NCBI GenBank assembly: GCA_032128875.1
Contig: JAVLKG010000002.1
Coordinates: forward strand, 576,001 to 640,000
DNA from: Candidatus Melainabacteria bacterium 17Bon1m
GTDB taxonomy: Bacteria > Cyanobacteriota > Vampirovibrionia > Obscuribacterales > Obscuribacteraceae
Direction of reading: 5' to 3'
Length of the DNA stretch: 64,000 nucleotides
Made by a program: the position numbers and the translations under genes. Positions 36,921 to 57,542 of this stretch are shown here, piece by piece (the first letter of the stretch is position 1; each line of letters opens with the position of its first letter). The notes under the pieces were generated by a model that made no database searches, had not been told where the DNA came from, and was given only the letters and a program-made list of their open reading frames with translations.

Positions 36921-37057
36921 GGTTCACTCCAAGGGGGATGCGCAGGGAAGGGATGGAGAGGAAATACGCAAGGTTCGACCGGGACTTACGAAGTAAGTTC
37001 CCGAGCCGTTCTTAACTAGAACACACGAACGAAAATCTAAAGACAACCTAAATATTG

Positions 37058-37069
37058 ATACAAGTGTAT
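37058..37069. promoter_or_regulatory. ATAC-N4-GTAT palindrome (candidate SOS box)
   Basis: ATACAAGTGTAT; minus strand GGTATACACTTGTAT versus the imuA site GGTATACATATGTAT. Confidence 0.45.
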
Positions 37070-37140
37070 ACCTTTATCTAGCGTTTTAGAACATCTAAGT
37101 AGTACCAGCCCATATTGACCCGGAAGTACTCTAGATGCAC

Positions 37141-37152
37141 ATACACTCGTAT
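37141..37152. promoter_or_regulatory. ATAC-N4-GTAT palindrome (candidate SOS box)
   Basis: ATACACTCGTAT, 83 bp from the previous copy. Confidence 0.4.
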
Positions 37153-50904: not shown

Positions 50905-50946
50905 TTGCTTTGCCTGTTGAAACGTGGTATACATATGTATGGTATC
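50905..50946 (+). promoter_or_regulatory. Putative imuA promoter with overlapping ATAC-N4-GTAT operator
   Basis: TTGCTT (50905) -17 bp- TATACA (50928) with TG extension; perfect palindrome ATACATATGTAT 50929-50940 followed by GGTATC. Confidence 0.6.
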
Positions 50947-51028
50947 GAAAAAACGTAGCAGTACAGCAAGTCGGGGCGCACCTGGCTTGTTTGTATGGGA
51001 TTAGCCGTATCTAGAAGAAACTACAAAA

Positions 51029-51814
51029 ATGGGCAGTCAAGTCAGTGTTTTTGCATTAAAGCAGCAATTAGAGCAGCTTTTCCCAGGGAAGTGGTTCTCT
51101 GCCGAAAAGAGGCATAAAGCGCTTTTGACTGGAGTTGCAGAGGTCGATGCAAAACTGGTCAATGGACTTTTGCGCAGACGTATTACTGAGTGGGCTGGAA
51201 GCATCTCATCAGGTAAAACGACACTGCTTCGCAAGGCTGTGGCAAATTGGTGTTCTGCAGGATTGCATGTCGCCTACATAGATCCATCCGGCCGTCTTTC
51301 TGCGGAAGATTGGGCTTTTGTTGGCGATGGTAATTTTGCATCAGCATCTACTCCCAGCCTTGTTACTTCCAAAGGAAAGTTTTGGGTTGTTCGCAATTTG
51401 ACTGTAAATCCAGAATTAAATTCTATGTGGGCGGCAGAGCAATTATTGCAGTCTCAAGTATTTGATGTGGTTATTTTTGACAGTGAGAATTTGCGTATTA
51501 CAAGTCGAATGCATGCGCGTCTAAAACGTGCTCTCGACAGATCAAAAGCTGCATTGATTGTTCTTCGCGATAACAATCGAGTAAGTAATTTTTCTAATAG
51601 TTGGGGCTTTCATACCCAGTTGAATTTTTCATGGGATTTGCCCATCGATTCACAAGATGGATTGTCTGGCTGTGCTGCTTTTATGCCAGCTATTAAAGGA
51701 AATGTTCTCAGGGATGGACTCTCTCAAGCTATAGAGGTGCGGGGAAAATCAAATGTCTCGAATAGCCTGTTTACGCATTCCCCGATTCCCGATCGCCGCA
51801 CAGCTAAAGTATGA
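51029..51814 (+). CDS. imuA: ImuA-like RecA-family mutagenesis protein
   Basis: TGVAEVD...GL..RRITEWAGSISSGKT, VAYIDP, WAAEQLLQS..FDVVIFD, ARLKRA; overlaps imuB. Confidence 0.8.
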   Translation: MGSQVSVFALKQQLEQLFPGKWFSAEKRHKALLTGVAEVDAKLVNGLLRRRITEWAGSISSGKTTLLRKAVANWCSAGLHVAYIDPSGRLSAEDWAFVGDGNFASASTPSLVTSKGKFWVVRNLTVNPELNSMWAAEQLLQSQVFDVVIFDSENLRITSRMHARLKRALDRSKAALIVLRDNNRVSNFSNSWGFHTQLNFSWDLPIDSQDGLSGCAAFMPAIKGNVLRDGLSQAIEVRGKSNVSNSLFTHSPIPDRRTAKV

Positions 51815-53357
51815 CCCTTCTTTGAAGAACAAACCGCTGGTTCTTGTAACTGGCGCAGAGGGGCGAAAGACTCTCAGTCAAAAAGTTGTAGCCTGTTCGA
51901 TTCAAGCAAGCAAGGAATATATACAGCCTGGAATGCGGCTTTCTGAAGCGCGTGCCATTTGTGGTGATTTGATTTCATTGCAATACGACACAAAATTATA
52001 TGAAGAAGCGCAAACAGAAATTGCCAGATTGCTCATCAATCTTTCACCACGTGTTTCGGCTTTAGAGCCAGGAATATTTTTACTTGATGCTTCCGGACTT
52101 TCACATCTTGGTGGTGAAAGTCGATTAGCGACCAATGCGCTTAAGATTTTGAGCAAGCTAAGTTATGTAGAAGCACGAGTTGGGATTGCAGACAGTGCTT
52201 TTTCTGCTTCGATTGCTACTCGCCTCAAAGGGCGCCGCTGGCACATGGTGCCTCAAGGTAAGGACAAATTATTTATAGCTCCAATGCCTGTTGAGTATCT
52301 TCCGCTTGGACAAGAGTCCGTAGATATTTTGAAGGACTTGGGCATCAAAACAATTGGTGATTTTGCCGCTCTTTCAATTACTTCTGTTGCGGAACGATTT
52401 AGCGAAGAAGGCAGAAAAGCGCATGAACTTGCACTTGGCTTAGATCACAGAAGACCTACATTGCCTCAAGTTTTCAAAGACCGACAGTGCTCAATGGAAA
52501 TTGGTGCACCAATTGAATCTCTTAATCAGACTTTATTTATTTTGAAGTCTCTTATCGATCGATTGTCTTCTGATTTGAAAAGAGATGGTTTATGCGCAGA
52601 AGAGCTTTTAATCAGTTTTTTTAACGAAAATGATTTGTTTGATGAGCGACCAATCAAGCTAATTGCTCCGACCAATAGTGCCAAGTTTCTTGTTGAAGTG
52701 ATCAAACTTTCTCTTGAAACAACAAAGCTTCAAAGAGAATTTACTGGAGTGCGGATTTCTGTTCAGCGTTATTGCGATGAGACATGGCAGCAGTCGCACC
52801 TCTCCGTTTCTGCAAATGCCAATGAGCAACTAGAGCTAAATGAGCCTTCTATGCTGCTTTTACAGAGACTCACGACTCGTCTGGGTGAAGGAAAGGTCGT
52901 GCAGCCTCAAGCAAGTGATGGATATGCACTTACAGGAAGCGGGTGTTGGACTCCTGTTATCGATACGAAAGCTAGAAGTATAAAGAGGACGGTTGCCGAA
53001 ACATACAAGCAGGCAGTCAATCCTGTCGATGTTGACTATATTTTAAAACGAGCTGGTGCTGCCGGTTTGGTTTCAAATTTGGTTTTGAAAAAACCGCATG
53101 AGCCTGTCAAAGTGATGGTGGAATTAAAGGACGAGCAACCAGTTTCACTGGCATATGCAGGCAACTGGTATCGCATTTCTTTAATCACCACTCCGGAATG
53201 TTTGTCTGGCTTTTGGTGGGATAAATTGATTCGCAATTCATATTATGTGGCAATGATTCAACCTTCTCAAAGATCGCAAATCAGCGAAAGCTTGGTTGTT
53301 CTTCTCGCCAAAGAGCACCTCAAAGATACCTGGCAAATTGAAGGGGTCTATGACTGA
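51753..53357 (+). CDS. imuB: ImuB, catalytically inactive Y-family polymerase scaffold
   Basis: IACLRIPRF (no catalytic Asp), GMRLSEARA, SPRVS, LDASG, LGIKTIGDF, LTTRLG, PECLSGFWW..YY...WQIEGVYD. Confidence 0.85.
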   Translation: MSRIACLRIPRFPIAAQLKYDPSLKNKPLVLVTGAEGRKTLSQKVVACSIQASKEYIQPGMRLSEARAICGDLISLQYDTKLYEEAQTEIARLLINLSPRVSALEPGIFLLDASGLSHLGGESRLATNALKILSKLSYVEARVGIADSAFSASIATRLKGRRWHMVPQGKDKLFIAPMPVEYLPLGQESVDILKDLGIKTIGDFAALSITSVAERFSEEGRKAHELALGLDHRRPTLPQVFKDRQCSMEIGAPIESLNQTLFILKSLIDRLSSDLKRDGLCAEELLISFFNENDLFDERPIKLIAPTNSAKFLVEVIKLSLETTKLQREFTGVRISVQRYCDETWQQSHLSVSANANEQLELNEPSMLLLQRLTTRLGEGKVVQPQASDGYALTGSGCWTPVIDTKARSIKRTVAETYKQAVNPVDVDYILKRAGAAGLVSNLVLKKPHEPVKVMVELKDEQPVSLAYAGNWYRISLITTPECLSGFWWDKLIRNSYYVAMIQPSQRSQISESLVVLLAKEHLKDTWQIEGVYD

Positions 53358-53416
53358 AGATGCCAGCTTGTGACGTCTTTTGGGATTAATCTTAGTGCTG
53401 ACCAAAAAGCCATGCC

Positions 53417-55264
53417 TTGCGTATAGATACACATGGGCAATTAGGCTTTCATCCAAAAATGACGTTACCATTAGAGCAGCTTACGCCTGCTCTTGCACCT
53501 CCGCGCAACGAAACCAGTGAGCGTCTTTATCAGGATGCTCGTGATTACGGGCGTTTTGAATCTCCGCGCTCAACCACCCTGGCTTTCGAACCGCAGTTGC
53601 AAGGCTTTCCAAAATCGGATTTGCTTCTGGCAAGTTTTGAAATTCCTGCTGCGCCTGTTGCCGGTGATAGAAAGACCTTCACTAAGGCTATTGATGGTCT
53701 CAGCGCTGAGCGTCGCGAGCGTTTTTACAATCGCATGGAAGCGTTTGAAACGCGTGCCCGCGCCGAACGTCTCGCTCCCGAGCAAATCGATGCGACTTAC
53801 CGGCAGATCAACCGTTTAATTTCAACTCGCACCAATACGCTCACCGACGAGCAACGCCTCAATATTGCCGAACAAGTAATGTCCATGACCGCTGATCCGA
53901 CAACAATAGATCAAGGGGTGCATGACACTTGCGGTGCCGCCGTCATTGAAGTAAGAACCTATATACGACACCCTGAGAAAGCCATCAAGCTTGTTGCAGA
54001 CGCCGCGTTAAATGCAGAGGTTCTGACTAAAAACGGTGTTGCCTTGCCTATTGATACTACTCCGCACGATACCTCGAAATTGGATGCTCCTAAATCAGGA
54101 CAGAGAAGTCATGCCAGCGAACTCTTTCAGGTGGCGGCCATAAATCTGGTCATCAACGACGGGCTAGGAAAGAAGGAAGGCAGCCTTGCATATCGTCAAA
54201 ATGACAGAAGACCCGAGACAGTCAATCTCGGAGAAATGGTCGTCGATTTTTCTTTTCATCCGCCGCGGGAAAAGAAATTCGAGGGATTATATGTGGCTGA
54301 TGTTTTGCGAATGAATCGATTGGTGACGGGAGAGGACGAGCCGGAATTGGTCTTGTGGAAAGCAAATACTCTGGGCGGTAAGCAGTATGGAAAACCATTT
54401 ACCAATGAAACCGAGATGGAAAGCGCGCTTCTAGAAGCCAAAATGAATGGCAAACTGCCTGCTGTGATCTACGTCTACAGCGGCAATGATCCCCTCTGGC
54501 AAGATGCTCCCAACATCAATGATGGAGGCCGTGGCGACGGACATTACATAAACGTCACGGACATAACTCTCGGCAAACAACCTTCAGTTGAAATAGACAG
54601 CACCTGGTGGAGGCGCGCAGACCATTTGAAGAGCACCGGCTCGTCTGTGAAGCTCTCGGATCTCTACCTCTCTTCTCTGCCTCCAAAGGATGCTGAAGCC
54701 CAATTGCGCCAGGAGTTGTCCGCTGCTGTAAAAGCTGGAAAGCCTGATGCTGCGCGGCAAATCGCATTGGCTCGTCAGGAGTGGGTCAATGGAAAAATCG
54801 ATACAAATGGGCTGGAAAGCTCGCTTCGTGAGCTTCTTCTCTATGCCGATATGCGCTGGCAGAACGAAAAGCGCGCCGGAAAGCTGAACACCGACGAGCA
54901 GTCTCGTGCGTTAACCAAGGCTATGGAAGCTGTCGATCGCTTGCCTTACGCCAATAAGGTAAGAATGCTGGAAACCCTCAAGAATAAAGGCATTATTGAT
55001 AGTACTGAATACGTGTCTGCATTGGTTGCCACTTCAAACGAAATGACCGAGCAGCGAATGATGATGACTTTTGCCGGCGAGCACGATCCGCAGAGGGAAT
55101 TAGGCTTCCGCCGCGCCCAGGACGAGCTTTCTCAGCGTTTTGACGCTTTGAGCCCCGATGTTCGCCGTATGGTCGACGAGCAGTTGCGCCGTGGACAGAA
55201 TGCTGACAATACCGGCTTCTACGCCTCCCGTGCAAAAGAAAGGCGTGACCGGCGGAAATTATAA
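53417..55264 (+). CDS. Hypothetical protein with possible papain-like Cys-His-Asp peptidase core; likely start ATG 53459
   Basis: IDQGVHDTCGAA, GDGHYINV, EIDSTWW in order, flanked by helical regions. Confidence 0.5.
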   Translation: MRIDTHGQLGFHPKMTLPLEQLTPALAPPRNETSERLYQDARDYGRFESPRSTTLAFEPQLQGFPKSDLLLASFEIPAAPVAGDRKTFTKAIDGLSAERRERFYNRMEAFETRARAERLAPEQIDATYRQINRLISTRTNTLTDEQRLNIAEQVMSMTADPTTIDQGVHDTCGAAVIEVRTYIRHPEKAIKLVADAALNAEVLTKNGVALPIDTTPHDTSKLDAPKSGQRSHASELFQVAAINLVINDGLGKKEGSLAYRQNDRRPETVNLGEMVVDFSFHPPREKKFEGLYVADVLRMNRLVTGEDEPELVLWKANTLGGKQYGKPFTNETEMESALLEAKMNGKLPAVIYVYSGNDPLWQDAPNINDGGRGDGHYINVTDITLGKQPSVEIDSTWWRRADHLKSTGSSVKLSDLYLSSLPPKDAEAQLRQELSAAVKAGKPDAARQIALARQEWVNGKIDTNGLESSLRELLLYADMRWQNEKRAGKLNTDEQSRALTKAMEAVDRLPYANKVRMLETLKNKGIIDSTEYVSALVATSNEMTEQRMMMTFAGEHDPQRELGFRRAQDELSQRFDALSPDVRRMVDEQLRRGQNADNTGFYASRAKERRDRRKL

Positions 55265-55428
55265 GGAATATATGCGCGGGCCTAGCGCTCCTTGAAACTT
55301 TCAGACCTGGCCCATGTCTCTAAAATGGATAAAGTTTTCATCCTGTTATGAGCCAGATCGCGGTCTATTGCTTGATATGCGGCTGTCAAGTCTGGTAATT
55401 TTGGGTTTAACCGACTGCAGAGTAAAAA

Positions 55429-56184
55429 ATGCCCAGGTTTGTGGATGCATTGCCAACCGATCGTCAACTTCTCAGCCTCTTTGTGCCGCTGGGAATATTG
55501 GGTCGCATTCTTGCTTGTTTGTTCAACCCGACCTGCTATTCCCGCATAGATTTAGAAGAGTTCAAACAGATTTGCAATTATCTTGGTCCCAAGTCCCTGC
55601 CACTCATCGTCGTCACCGCTATCTTCATTTCACTGGCACTTACAATCGAGACGATTCTCGAGACGACCAGATACGGGGCGCAAGATAGTTCGGGCGCTGC
55701 CATTTCTATAGGTTTGCTGCGCGAACTCGGTCCTCTCACGGTTAGCATTTTCTGGGCCGCTCGAGTGACTGTGCTTTTGTCCTACAACGCAAAGTTGTAT
55801 GTGGATGCCAACGGCTCCAAGGACTTTATTGAAGTGTTTGTATTTCCGCGCTTTCTTGCCGGACTAATCATGGCAATTCCTCTGGCCAGTTTCGGCTTGG
55901 TCTTTGGCTTCGCCACAGCTGCTTTCTATGCGCCGACTATTGGAGTCAGCTCGTGGCAAGAATTTTTAGAGATAGCCCGCGTTTCCATCCACGAGAAAGA
56001 TATCGTGGTCTACTTTGTCAAACTTGTGTTGCTCAATCCAATTATCGCTGTCATCGTCGGCAGTGCATGCGGACTTTATTCAAATGAAGATGGTGGTACT
56101 ACCGCTTCCCATGCGGTTTCTAAAATGTTCATCTACGCGGTAATCGCCAATTTCGTTTTCACTTACTTTATGTTCCCCATCTAA
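55429..56184 (+). CDS. mlaE: MlaE family ABC permease (divergent)
   Basis: GPKSLPL, LLRELGPL, VFPRFLAG; precedes an MCE-domain gene. Confidence 0.75.
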   Translation: MPRFVDALPTDRQLLSLFVPLGILGRILACLFNPTCYSRIDLEEFKQICNYLGPKSLPLIVVTAIFISLALTIETILETTRYGAQDSSGAAISIGLLRELGPLTVSIFWAARVTVLLSYNAKLYVDANGSKDFIEVFVFPRFLAGLIMAIPLASFGLVFGFATAAFYAPTIGVSSWQEFLEIARVSIHEKDIVVYFVKLVLLNPIIAVIVGSACGLYSNEDGGTTASHAVSKMFIYAVIANFVFTYFMFPI

Positions 56185-56204
56185 AAGGAAGAATAGGCGC
56201 CTCA

Positions 56205-57479
56205 ATGTCAATCACTACCGATTCCAACTCGGCAATTCGCGATGGACGCCTGGGCGTTTTTGTTCTCATCGCCATCATTTTTTTGATGGGTTCATATCTG
56301 TGGTTCAAGGCTGTTTCGCCCTGGAATCCACAACAAAGATTTGAAGTCCGTTTTCATGAAATCGCAGCTCTCAATGATAATGCGCCGATTCTTGTAAATG
56401 GCGTCCGCGTCGGGTCTGTTGAAAGTATTCATTTGAAGGGCAAAGACTCAGTGCATGTAAAAATGCAGATCAACAAATCGAAGATCACCATTCCCGAAGG
56501 TGCGACGTTCAAAATCTTGAGTAATAACGTAGTCGGCGTTAAGTACGTCGACATCTCGCTGCCGAGGAGCGATCCGAATAAGCCACAGCCTCGTCCTCTT
56601 GATGAAACGATGGAGGTTGTTGGGCAAGATCCGGGTCGACCGGAAGTGATTATCGATGAATTGACCGCTAGTCTGAGCAAAATCAGTTTTGACAAACTGG
56701 AGAAGAAGGTTGCGGAGAATTTCGATGATCTTTCGATTGCCACAAAAAACATTTCCAAAGCTTCAGAGAAATTAGGACCGGTTGCCGACAAGACAATCCT
56801 TATGGAAGATAAGGTGGGTGTCCTTGCTGACGAAGTGAGAACAACCTCGAAGCGAATCAACAAGATTATCGAAAACCCGCAGTTTGTTGCTGACATAAAA
56901 GAGACAGCTAAGCGAGCGCGCGATGTCGCAGCTTCTATTGAAAGGACGATGAATCAGGTCGACTCCTTACTTGCCGATAGAGAATTGCGCAACGACGTCA
57001 AAGAATCGCTGGCTCGTTTGAACGATGCGACGAAGCATGTTCAAAGTGGATTGGAAACTTTCGAAAAAATCGCTCAGGACAAAGACGTTCGCAGTGACTT
57101 GAAGGCGATTATGGTCGATGCTCGGCAAACGCTGGATAAGGTCTATCGCATGGTCAACAGTCCTGGATTTGGAGACGATCTCAAAGGTACTCTCAAGAAC
57201 ACAAATCAGGCTCTGGAAAACATCAATACTGTCACGCTTCAGGTCAATCAGATTTTGAGTAAGCGACATCCTTTGCTGCACATGATTTTTGGTGCTCCCG
57301 GCAAATTGGATGTGAAGGCGCGTCTTCACAAGAAGGAAGGCGACAGCAAGGATAAAGACAAAGGCACGAACGCGAAGAATTCCAACGATTCGTCGCATTC
57401 GAAAGAGGCTTCTTCTTCGACTCCGCCAACTACGCCCGTCGTAGATGAGATAGACAAGCAAGCTCCAGCCAACGATTGA
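56205..57479 (+). CDS. mlaD: MlaD/MCE family protein with long helical region
   Basis: N-terminal TM, F.EIAALNDNAPILVNGVRVGSV, VVGVKYVDI, then coiled-coil. Confidence 0.85.
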   Translation: MSITTDSNSAIRDGRLGVFVLIAIIFLMGSYLWFKAVSPWNPQQRFEVRFHEIAALNDNAPILVNGVRVGSVESIHLKGKDSVHVKMQINKSKITIPEGATFKILSNNVVGVKYVDISLPRSDPNKPQPRPLDETMEVVGQDPGRPEVIIDELTASLSKISFDKLEKKVAENFDDLSIATKNISKASEKLGPVADKTILMEDKVGVLADEVRTTSKRINKIIENPQFVADIKETAKRARDVAASIERTMNQVDSLLADRELRNDVKESLARLNDATKHVQSGLETFEKIAQDKDVRSDLKAIMVDARQTLDKVYRMVNSPGFGDDLKGTLKNTNQALENINTVTLQVNQILSKRHPLLHMIFGAPGKLDVKARLHKKEGDSKDKDKGTNAKNSNDSSHSKEASSSTPPTTPVVDEIDKQAPAND

Positions 57480-57513
57480 ACGTTTTTCGTTTCGACATCT
57501 GTTGGATATTGTA

Positions 57514-57542
57514 TTGTCAGCCATACGAAAGTATGGTATCTT
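57514..57542 (+). promoter_or_regulatory. Putative dnaE2 promoter with palindromic operator in the -35/-10 spacer
   Basis: TTGTCA (57514) -17 bp- TATCTT (57537) with TG extension; spacer holds CCATAC-GAAA-GTATGG (57521-57536). Confidence 0.7.

Follow-up and report, generated by a model that had tools for sequence, protein, structure and literature searches.

LexA is a textbook factor whose binding motif has changed repeatedly and whose regulon has been rebuilt around translesion synthesis, and the imuA-imuB-dnaE2 cassette usually forms a single operon under LexA control. The Melainabacteria, a sister group of Cyanobacteria, are uncultured and do not photosynthesize, and we found no regulatory description of them in the literature searched. 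Here, we analyze a 64,000-nucleotide stretch of DNA (the window) from Candidatus Melainabacteria bacterium 17Bon1m, a member of the Obscuribacterales (Melainabacteria) with a genome of 7.55 Mb and 50% G+C, in which the promoters of an imuA-like gene and of dnaE2 carry the inverted repeat (C/T)ATAC-N4-GTATG. An earlier note on this DNA had proposed that a dyad of this kind is the LexA operator of the lineage. Our comparisons support the proposal: the dyad occupies the lexA promoter throughout the family and in a second family of the order, and its sites at imuA and dnaE2 are conserved among relatives. Judging from comparative sequence analysis, C/T-ATAC-N4-GTAT-G is very likely the LexA operator of Obscuribacterales (Melainabacteria, Vampirovibrionia). 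The finding bears on how the SOS response has evolved, and what is new about it lies in the sequence of the dyad rather than in the type of LexA box.

Relation to described LexA boxes

According to the accessible sections of PMC3091678, the LexA box of Bacillus subtilis is CGAAC-N4-GTTCG, that of Nostoc is RGTACNNNDGTWCB, and the cyanobacterial consensus is AGTACWNWTGTACT. The hosts of the cyanobacterial box are sister lineages within the same phylum, and the features that it shares with the dyad described here are a length of 14 bp, a 5-4-5 arrangement, a TAC-N4-GTA core, and sites at lexA and ssb (accessible sections of PMC3091678). The two differ in the half-site, which is AGTAC in the cyanobacterial box as given there and CATAC here, with A for G at position 2 and C or T instead of A as the outer base. 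They also differ in their targets, as recA has no site here and the predicted regulon centers on translesion polymerases and a small RNA (sRNA)-like family. The Gram-positive box CGAAC-N4-GTTCG shares the length, the symmetry, the 4-nucleotide spacer, the outer C/G, and the inner AC/GT, but positions 2 and 3 of its half-site differ from CATAC (same sections of PMC3091678). Position 2 is A here and G in both known boxes, as far as the accessible text gives them. The half-site CATAC is thus two of five positions away from each published consensus (CGAAC-N4-GTTCG and AGTAC-N4-GTACT), and we therefore file the dyad as a new variant that is a member of neither. Very probably, on the strength of these sequence comparisons, it represents a version of the Gram-positive/cyanobacterial 5-4-5 LexA box that is specific to this lineage. 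The earlier note had seen a 4-4-4 geometry in common with known boxes; the likeness holds for the boxes in the accessible part of PMC3091678 and for the TGTAC-N4-GTACA dyad of a sister family, but the unit is really 5-4-5.

There are precedents for a new LexA motif found by footprinting the promoters of lexA and translesion polymerases, namely, in the Balneolaeota and Bacteroidetes (accessible parts of PMC7739468 and PMC8565304). The Balneolaeota motif is given there as a direct repeat, TTACACATATTTTWTACATA, and its regulon includes translesion polymerases together with a helicase and a radical-SAM protein, a set with likenesses to the one predicted below (PMC7739468). The Bacteroidetes motifs are GGA-N5-TCC and CTAA-N5-TTAG (PMC8565304). 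These direct-repeat and N5-spaced motifs have other sequences and architectures and, in the text accessible to us, were validated by electrophoretic mobility shift assay, whereas the operator in the Obscuribacterales is predicted from sequence. The earlier note did not recognize the variant as described, and our literature search, the scope of which mostly excluded subscription journals, likewise returned no description of it. Varied spellings of the motif were not found in the literature searched, where the LexA-motif papers found give other sequences, and the accessible text of the literature on LexA with Melainabacteria or Vampirovibrionia describes no box.

The dyad at the lexA promoter

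The genome under study (G000) has only one LexA DNA-binding domain, which lies on contig C11 (contigs are denoted by C), so that lexA is outside the window, as the earlier note had stated. The protein, of 220 amino acids (C11:69653-70312), matches PF01726 at 66.5 bits, PF00717 (S24) at 106.2 bits, and TIGR00498 at 171.2 bits (cut-off, 110.95). Aligned to E. coli LexA chains, it retains AAG at the cleavage site, the Ser in GNSM, and the Lys in LKRL, residues whose roles are described in the accessible sections of PMC3091678. At 108 nucleotides upstream of the lexA ATG lies TATACTTACGTATG (TATAC-TTAC-GTATG), on a TATACT hexamer 17 nucleotides past TTGTCA.

We sought lexA in 40 relatives and found it in 28 at an E value of ≤1e-20, which together with the genome under study gives 29 genomes. 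The 16-mer ACTATACTTACGTATG at the lexA promoter is invariant in all 24 family genomes with lexA, the one under study included. In the same 24 genomes, LexA identity drops to 58% and the DNA around the 16-mer diverges freely. The second family of the order (f2) carries TATACTTATGTATG at this promoter in 3/3 genomes, and an exact match to the dyad is missing at lexA in two genomes of another family of the class. In one of these two, G035, the lexA promoter carries CATACATCTATATG, flanked by TTGCCA and a -10-like hexamer. Helix III of LexA, which would set the specificity of the protein, is conserved in the Obscuribacterales as RNRMTVHQHV, in contrast to (K/S)S(T/L)(S/A)TVH(A/K)H in the aligned Clostridia and Vicinamibacterales.

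Of 121 genomes sampled from the class, 72 yielded a LexA DNA-binding domain, and we examined 20 lexA promoters from the 46 such genomes outside families f1 and f2. All four promoters of family f8 (L294-L297) carry TGTAC-N4-GTACA, each overlapped by GAAC-N4-GTAC. Family f4 has C(A/T)TAC-N4-GTATG with at most one mismatch in three of six promoters, and related CTTAC/CTTAT forms are visible by eye in the other three. The single genome of f10 (L287) has CTTAC-N4-GTAAG between TTGACA and TAATAT. Families f9, f11, and f5 (L278-L286) show GAAT-N4-ATTC-like dyads, which are exact palindromes in two genomes and discernible by eye in the rest. LexA was detected in 1/14 genomes of f5, 3/24 of f6, and 0/9 of f7. 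The lexA promoters of the class thus hold related dyads of at least three kinds (TGTAC-N4-GTACA, GAAT-N4-ATTC-like, and C(A/T)TAC-N4-GTA(T/A)G), and this variety leads us to regard the ATAC form as one of several single-step variants of an ancestral plan. With CATAC-N4-GTATG as the third member, these dyads make up a natural series in which the co-evolution of helix and operator by single-base steps can be followed.

The imuA and dnaE2 promoters of the window

The window contains ATAC-N4-GTAT four times (at 37058, 37141, 50929, and 57523), against an expectation of 0.25, and at least four copies occurred in 0 of 100 shuffles. No open reading frame (ORF) of ≥100 amino acids overlaps any of the four. 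The features of the two promoters and the two remaining matches are as follows.

50905..50910 (+): TTGCTT, candidate -35 of the putative imuA promoter, 17 nucleotides before TATACA
50928..50941 (unstranded): predicted LexA box at imuA, TATAC-ATAT-GTATG, 21.7 bits, overlapping the candidate -10 TATACA (50928-50933)
57514..57519 (+): TTGTCA, -35 of the dnaE2 promoter from the promoter scan, conserved as TTG(T/C)CA in genus g1
57522..57535 (unstranded): predicted LexA box at dnaE2, CATAC-GAAA-GTATG, 22.6 bits, filling the -35/-10 spacer
57537..57542 (+): TATCTT, -10 of the dnaE2 promoter, preceded by TG; the scan gives TTGTCA-17-TATCTT with 9/12 matches
37058..37069 (unstranded): ATACAAGTGTAT, 8-mer match unsupported as a LexA box, 3.0 bits, flanked by G/A instead of C/G
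37141..37152 (unstranded): ATACACTCGTAT, chance match, 9.3 bits, with the GTAT arm in the genome under study only (n = 12 aligned genus genomes)

Both strings quoted in the earlier note are present as given, tATACATATGTATGGTATC at 50928-50946 (imuA) and cATACGAAAGTATGGTATC at 57522-57540 (dnaE2), and the GGTATC tail that follows each site consists of the outer G of the dyad and a -10-like hexamer. At dnaE2, we also recovered the described 6-bp arms CCATAC/GTATGG (57521-57536) within a 17-nucleotide TTGTCA/TATCTT spacer, a pair that the promoter scan picked as well; this site has the top weight-matrix score of the whole genome. At imuA, the reported overlap holds for a candidate -10, since the first six bases of the dyad, TATACA, form a plausible hexamer 17 nucleotides past TTGCTT. 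Whether the -10 is TATACA or the downstream TATCGA is uncertain. Genus alignments comprise 12 genomes of g1, the genus of the window genome, and the imuA -35 is kept at the same spacing as cTTGCTTtg in nine of them and reads gTTGCGCa in the remaining three.

The earlier note had counted four intergenic copies. All four do lie outside ORFs of ≥100 amino acids, but neither score nor conservation supports those at 37058 and 37141 as operators, and we rejected both as LexA boxes. The GTAT arm at 37141 is unconserved in the genus, and 37058 lies inside a block of about 60 nucleotides that is wholly invariant in 12/12 genus genomes, so that its conservation is uninformative on the dyad. For these two copies, chance occurrence is the best reading.

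The invariant block itself (ctaaagacaacctaaatattgatacaagtgtatacctttatctagcgttttagaacatc), within window positions 36990-37110, is intergenic and has variable flanks. It is preceded by a hairpin, GGGACTTAC-N4-GTAAGTTCCC, and lies between a receiver-domain ORF and a gene for an FAD flavoprotein of the fumarate reductase/aspartate oxidase type. No Rfam family matches it.

Orthologous promoters and the predicted regulon

Conservation at orthologous imuA and dnaE2 promoters, which the earlier note had made a test of its proposal, is evident. Upstream of imuA, the exact 8-mer is present in 21/22 genomes and a form with at most one mismatch in 22/22, down to an ImuA identity of 40%, and the central four bases vary (ATAT, ATTT, GTAT, GTAC, AAAT, GGGT, AAAG, and GGAC). 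Upstream of dnaE2, the exact 8-mer is present in 13/21 genomes, and five more have one mismatch to the 14-mer, for a total of 18/21 at ≤1 mismatch. The three genomes without a site at dnaE2 are G022, G019, and G023; in G022, dnaE2 lies directly behind imuAB and, being contiguous with them, needs no promoter of its own.

Other repair genes carry the same dyad. It precedes a long ssb paralogue (197 amino acids) exactly in 15/16 genomes and with at most one mismatch in 16/16. It precedes umuD-umuC in 12/12 Obscuribacterales at ≤2 mismatches (11 with one), where UmuD scores 135 bits against its model (cut-off, 110), and three S24 genes from other families proved to be without it. At an Rv2578c/PA0069-like radical-SAM gene, it is present in 14/14 genomes at ≤1 mismatch, three of them exact. 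The dyad is thereby conserved at orthologous promoters of six gene families in at least 13 genera, with a variable spacer.

The predicted regulon comprises lexA, two mutagenic polymerase systems, the second ssb, the radical-SAM gene, and small RNAs, without recA or uvrA. Such a composition speaks for the idea that what is conserved at the heart of the SOS response is mutagenic translesion synthesis, and a defined LexA box would make SOS regulons predictable from Melainabacteria metagenome-assembled genomes.

The genome under study has two ssb genes, one of 197 amino acids with the dyad (C2:1006609-1007199, minus strand) and one of 114 amino acids without it (C11:98097-98381, plus strand). This arrangement suggests that the longer gene is damage-inducible and stands beside a housekeeping 114-amino-acid ssb. 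Three further candidate sites were noted: one of 16.7 bits, 256 nucleotides upstream of a 2039-amino-acid UvrD-like helicase with C-terminal zinc ribbons (C7:127846-133965, minus strand); one of 19.5 bits upstream of a 171-amino-acid coiled-coil protein (C11:100581-101096, plus strand); and one of 17.2 bits upstream of a 274-amino-acid protein of no known family (C5:525920-526744, plus strand).

Promoter architecture

The dyad occurs in two registers. In the first, it fills a spacer of 16 to 17 nucleotides in the order TTGACA, 2 to 3 nucleotides, CATAC-N4-GTATG, 0 to 2 nucleotides, TAnnnT, as seen at dnaE2, ssb, umuD, the radical-SAM gene, the sRNA-like genes, and imuA of most genera; at ssb, it starts inside the -35 (TTGA-CATAC). 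In the second, found at lexA and at imuA of genus g1, it lies on the -10/start region. In the imuA, dnaE2, ssb, and sRNA sets, the arms are fixed and the N4 is variable, which defines a 14-bp inverted repeat with 5-nucleotide arms.

We considered whether the conserved bases might instead serve RNA polymerase or a special sigma factor as an element of the promoter or its spacer, or form a hairpin in the leader RNA. The promoters are indeed alike, and in most targets the dyad keeps a fixed register to the -10 (GTATG and then TAnnnT), as a promoter element would. However, a symmetric dyad with fixed arms and a free 4-nucleotide center is the pattern of a site for a dimeric protein, and the dyad occupies two registers. 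The hexamers are ordinary and sigma-70-like, with spacers of 16 to 17 nucleotides, which speaks against a special sigma factor, and the spacer dyad cannot be an RNA hairpin because it lies upstream of the start site. We therefore consider such an element very improbable; with its two registers, symmetric form, and free center, the dyad looks more like a repressor site.

Under the LexA assignment, LexA would be the binder of the dyad, with repression on binding, and the genes behind it would be damage-inducible. A LexA dimer would bind C/T-ATAC-N4-GTAT-G and, whether in the -35/-10 spacer or on the -10/start site, would shut out RNA polymerase. Upon DNA damage, RecA-stimulated self-cleavage of LexA would then release the promoters.

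Genome-wide distribution

The bare 8-mer ATAC-N4-GTAT has 43 sites in the genome, as does its backwards control, and 19 of these sites fall outside long ORFs, a share that is ordinary for TA-rich palindromes. We therefore dropped it as a genome-wide signal in favor of the 14-mer CATAC-N4-GTATG. Ten of the 13 genomic copies of the 14-mer lie outside ORFs of ≥150 amino acids, where the non-ORF share of the genome is 18.5% (binomial P = 7.7e-6), and among 30 palindromes of the same composition it has the highest intergenic share, the runner-up having 6 of 36 copies intergenic. The intergenic enrichment raised in the earlier note is accordingly a property of the 14-mer, not of the 8-mer. The consensus of the dyad is cCATAC-N4-GTATGg, and lexA and the imuA of genus g1 carry the TATAC-N4-GTATG form.

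A weight matrix gives eight hits of ≥18 bits, located at dnaE2, imuA, lexA, ssb, three sRNA-like copies, and one unknown gene. All eight are actually intergenic; two were flagged as coding by a crude mask only, through the ORF run-in before lexA and a 153-amino-acid ORF over an sRNA copy.

With an AT-rich 8-mer in AT-rich intergenic DNA, the co-occurrence of the sites could in principle be fortuitous, and the equality with the control, the ordinary intergenic share, and the two unsupported copies of the window are what such a view would expect. Against it stand the conservation at orthologous promoters of six gene families with variable spacers and the enrichment of the 14-mer. For the imuA and dnaE2 copies, chance is already refuted, and as an account of the whole set its probability is negligible.

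One exact copy, ACATACTAGAGTATGG at C1:284357-284372, is flanked by a TetR gene and an HlyD/AcrB efflux operon that diverge from each other. This site is probably that TetR's own operator, with a chance likeness to the LexA dyad.

An sRNA-like family behind the dyad

An unexpected lead is a family of sRNA-like elements with the LexA box. The element is about 130 nucleotides long, is unannotated, and has five paralogous copies (L004-L008) in the genome under study.

C11:158398-158536 (-): sRNA-like copy
C5:471257-471396 (-): sRNA-like copy
C5:380647-380791 (-): sRNA-like copy
C1:666139-666292 (-): sRNA-like copy
C2:444944-445129 (+): sRNA-like copy

The promoter at each copy reads TTGACA-N3-CATAC-N4-GTATG-TATAAT. 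We collected copies in relatives via the hairpin GCGCGAG-UGUUGCCUAGGGCC-CUCGCGC and not via the dyad, and all 29 unique copies have the dyad 65 to 117 nucleotides upstream (27 exact and 2 with one mismatch), with fixed arms and many different N4. Of all the evidence for the motif, these hairpin-collected copies are the least circular.

RNAalifold predicts three helices from 25 copies, with double changes in 6 of 19 predicted pairs. The loop hexamer of the invariant hairpin alternates between CCUAGG and CCCGGG, both of which are self-complementary. A covariance model matches exactly the five copies in the genome under study, two of which were outside the training set. In the 121-genome sample of the class, scanned with stricter filters that may have missed weak copies, it matched four genomes, all of the same family: the one under study and three others with 2 to 6 matches each. 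The element is thus present in several copies in some genera of the Obscuribacteraceae. Rfam returned nothing at E ≤ 1 except one chance snoRNA match of 19 bits. A Y-RNA/Ro identity was rejected, as the genome (93% complete) has no TROVE domain.

The family would be the most numerous set of targets of the predicted operator, and we tentatively read it as a clade-restricted group of structured, DNA-damage-induced riboregulators under LexA control, a reading to which we give slightly less than an even chance. If it is true, riboregulators with possible loop-loop dimerization would form a major arm of the SOS response in the Obscuribacteraceae. This arm would accompany a LexA box that documents a stepwise drift of specificity from GAAC to GTAC to ATAC within one phylum.

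A separate small unit was seen at L298 (C2:952436-952560, plus strand), where a 17.4-bit site (C2:952444) stands as TTGACA-ag-CCGTATATATGTATGG-TATATT. Behind it comes a conserved, transcript-like stretch of roughly 100 nucleotides with a strong GC (terminator) hairpin at its end, observed in the genus only. A peptide from the 23-codon ORF after this site is unlikely because relatives carry frame-breaking indels, and the unit is probably another small RNA.

Probable assignment of the dyad to LexA

The presence of the dyad on the lexA promoter of every family genome examined is the usual signature of LexA autoregulation, and the set of genes behind it (lexA, imuAB, dnaE2, umuDC, and ssb) is a typical SOS core. 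Its geometry equals that of known LexA boxes (accessible sections of PMC3091678), and sister families place a cyanobacterial-type LexA box at the same spot before lexA. It could nonetheless be that lexA, the translesion polymerases, ssb, and the sRNA-like genes are under the joint control of some dimeric transcription factor other than LexA. The identity of the binder is, after all, something that we infer; recA, uvrA, and dinB have no site; and five of the 13 exact 14-mers precede the paralogous copies of the sRNA-like element, for which no link to repair is known. We saw no regulator gene traveling with the sites, although this was not searched for systematically. Given the lexA promoter and the composition of the gene set, we consider such a factor improbable and retain LexA as the predicted binder.

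Several observations weigh against this assignment. The earlier note had looked to lexA and recA for the motif, and only the first part of that expectation held: it is present at lexA, but no site of ≥5 bits lies at -400 to +150 of recA, two uvrA homologues, or dinB. We rejected these genes as members, and classical core SOS genes therefore fall outside the predicted regulon. The sites at umuD and the radical-SAM gene are mostly one mismatch off. The relatives are kin and not independent samples, with whole promoters conserved within the genus. The bare 8-mer is unenriched, and the weight-matrix scores are partly circular because the pattern itself served to choose the training sites. Of the 13 exact 14-mers, six have neither a repair gene nor an sRNA copy beside them; two of these lie within long ORFs and four outside, one of the latter at the TetR/efflux divergent promoter. 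Family f4 combines a similar dyad with a different LexA helix III, so that no simple helix-to-motif rule supports the assignment. Lastly, the three runs labeled RNA-Seq that contain the sRNA locus assemble into single contigs of 137 to 156 kb with flat depth, which is DNA-like and uninformative on transcription.

Genes of the window cassette

The genes between and behind the two promoters of the window are as follows.

51029..51814 (+): imuA-like gene, 261 amino acids, with a weak RecA-like Pfam match, immediately preceding the Y-family gene
51753..53357 (+): imuB-like Y-family polymerase homologue, 534 amino acids as the longest ORF, with PF00817 IMS (72 bits) and PF11799
53417..55264 (+): 615-amino-acid ORF without a known family, located after imuB and before the mla genes; the nearest Atlas clusters are hypothetical Melainabacteria proteins
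55429..56184 (+): MlaE-type permease gene, PF02405, 80.6 bits
56205..57479 (+): MlaD-domain protein gene, PF02470, 58.6 bits
57686..60937 (+): dnaE2, error-prone DNA polymerase, 1083 amino acids, NCBIfam NF004225 at 1232.7 bits (cut-off, 939)

The imuA-like ORF scores 32.7 bits against NCBIfam ImuA_translesion, below the cut-off of 150. It adjoins the imuB-like ORF with the IMS domain, for which every Pol IV model is far under its cut-off and no specific model matches, as expected of a divergent ImuB-type protein. Pfam and NCBIfam hold no family for the 615-amino-acid ORF. The dnaE2 product has PHP, DNA_pol3_alpha, finger, HHH_6, and OB domains in Pfam, and a separate dnaE1 at C2:258029 is 38% identical to it.

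As in the usual imuA-imuB-dnaE2 cassette, the imuA-like gene, the imuB-like gene, and dnaE2 are present with a predicted operator in front, and in G022 the three are contiguous. Unlike the usual cassette, that of the window is split by three unrelated genes (the Melainabacteria-specific 615-amino-acid ORF, mlaE, and mlaD, at 53417-57479), and dnaE2 has its own dyad-bearing promoter. Among relatives, the distance from imuA to dnaE2 ranges from 2.5 kb, in the contiguous arrangement of G022, to about 8 kb.

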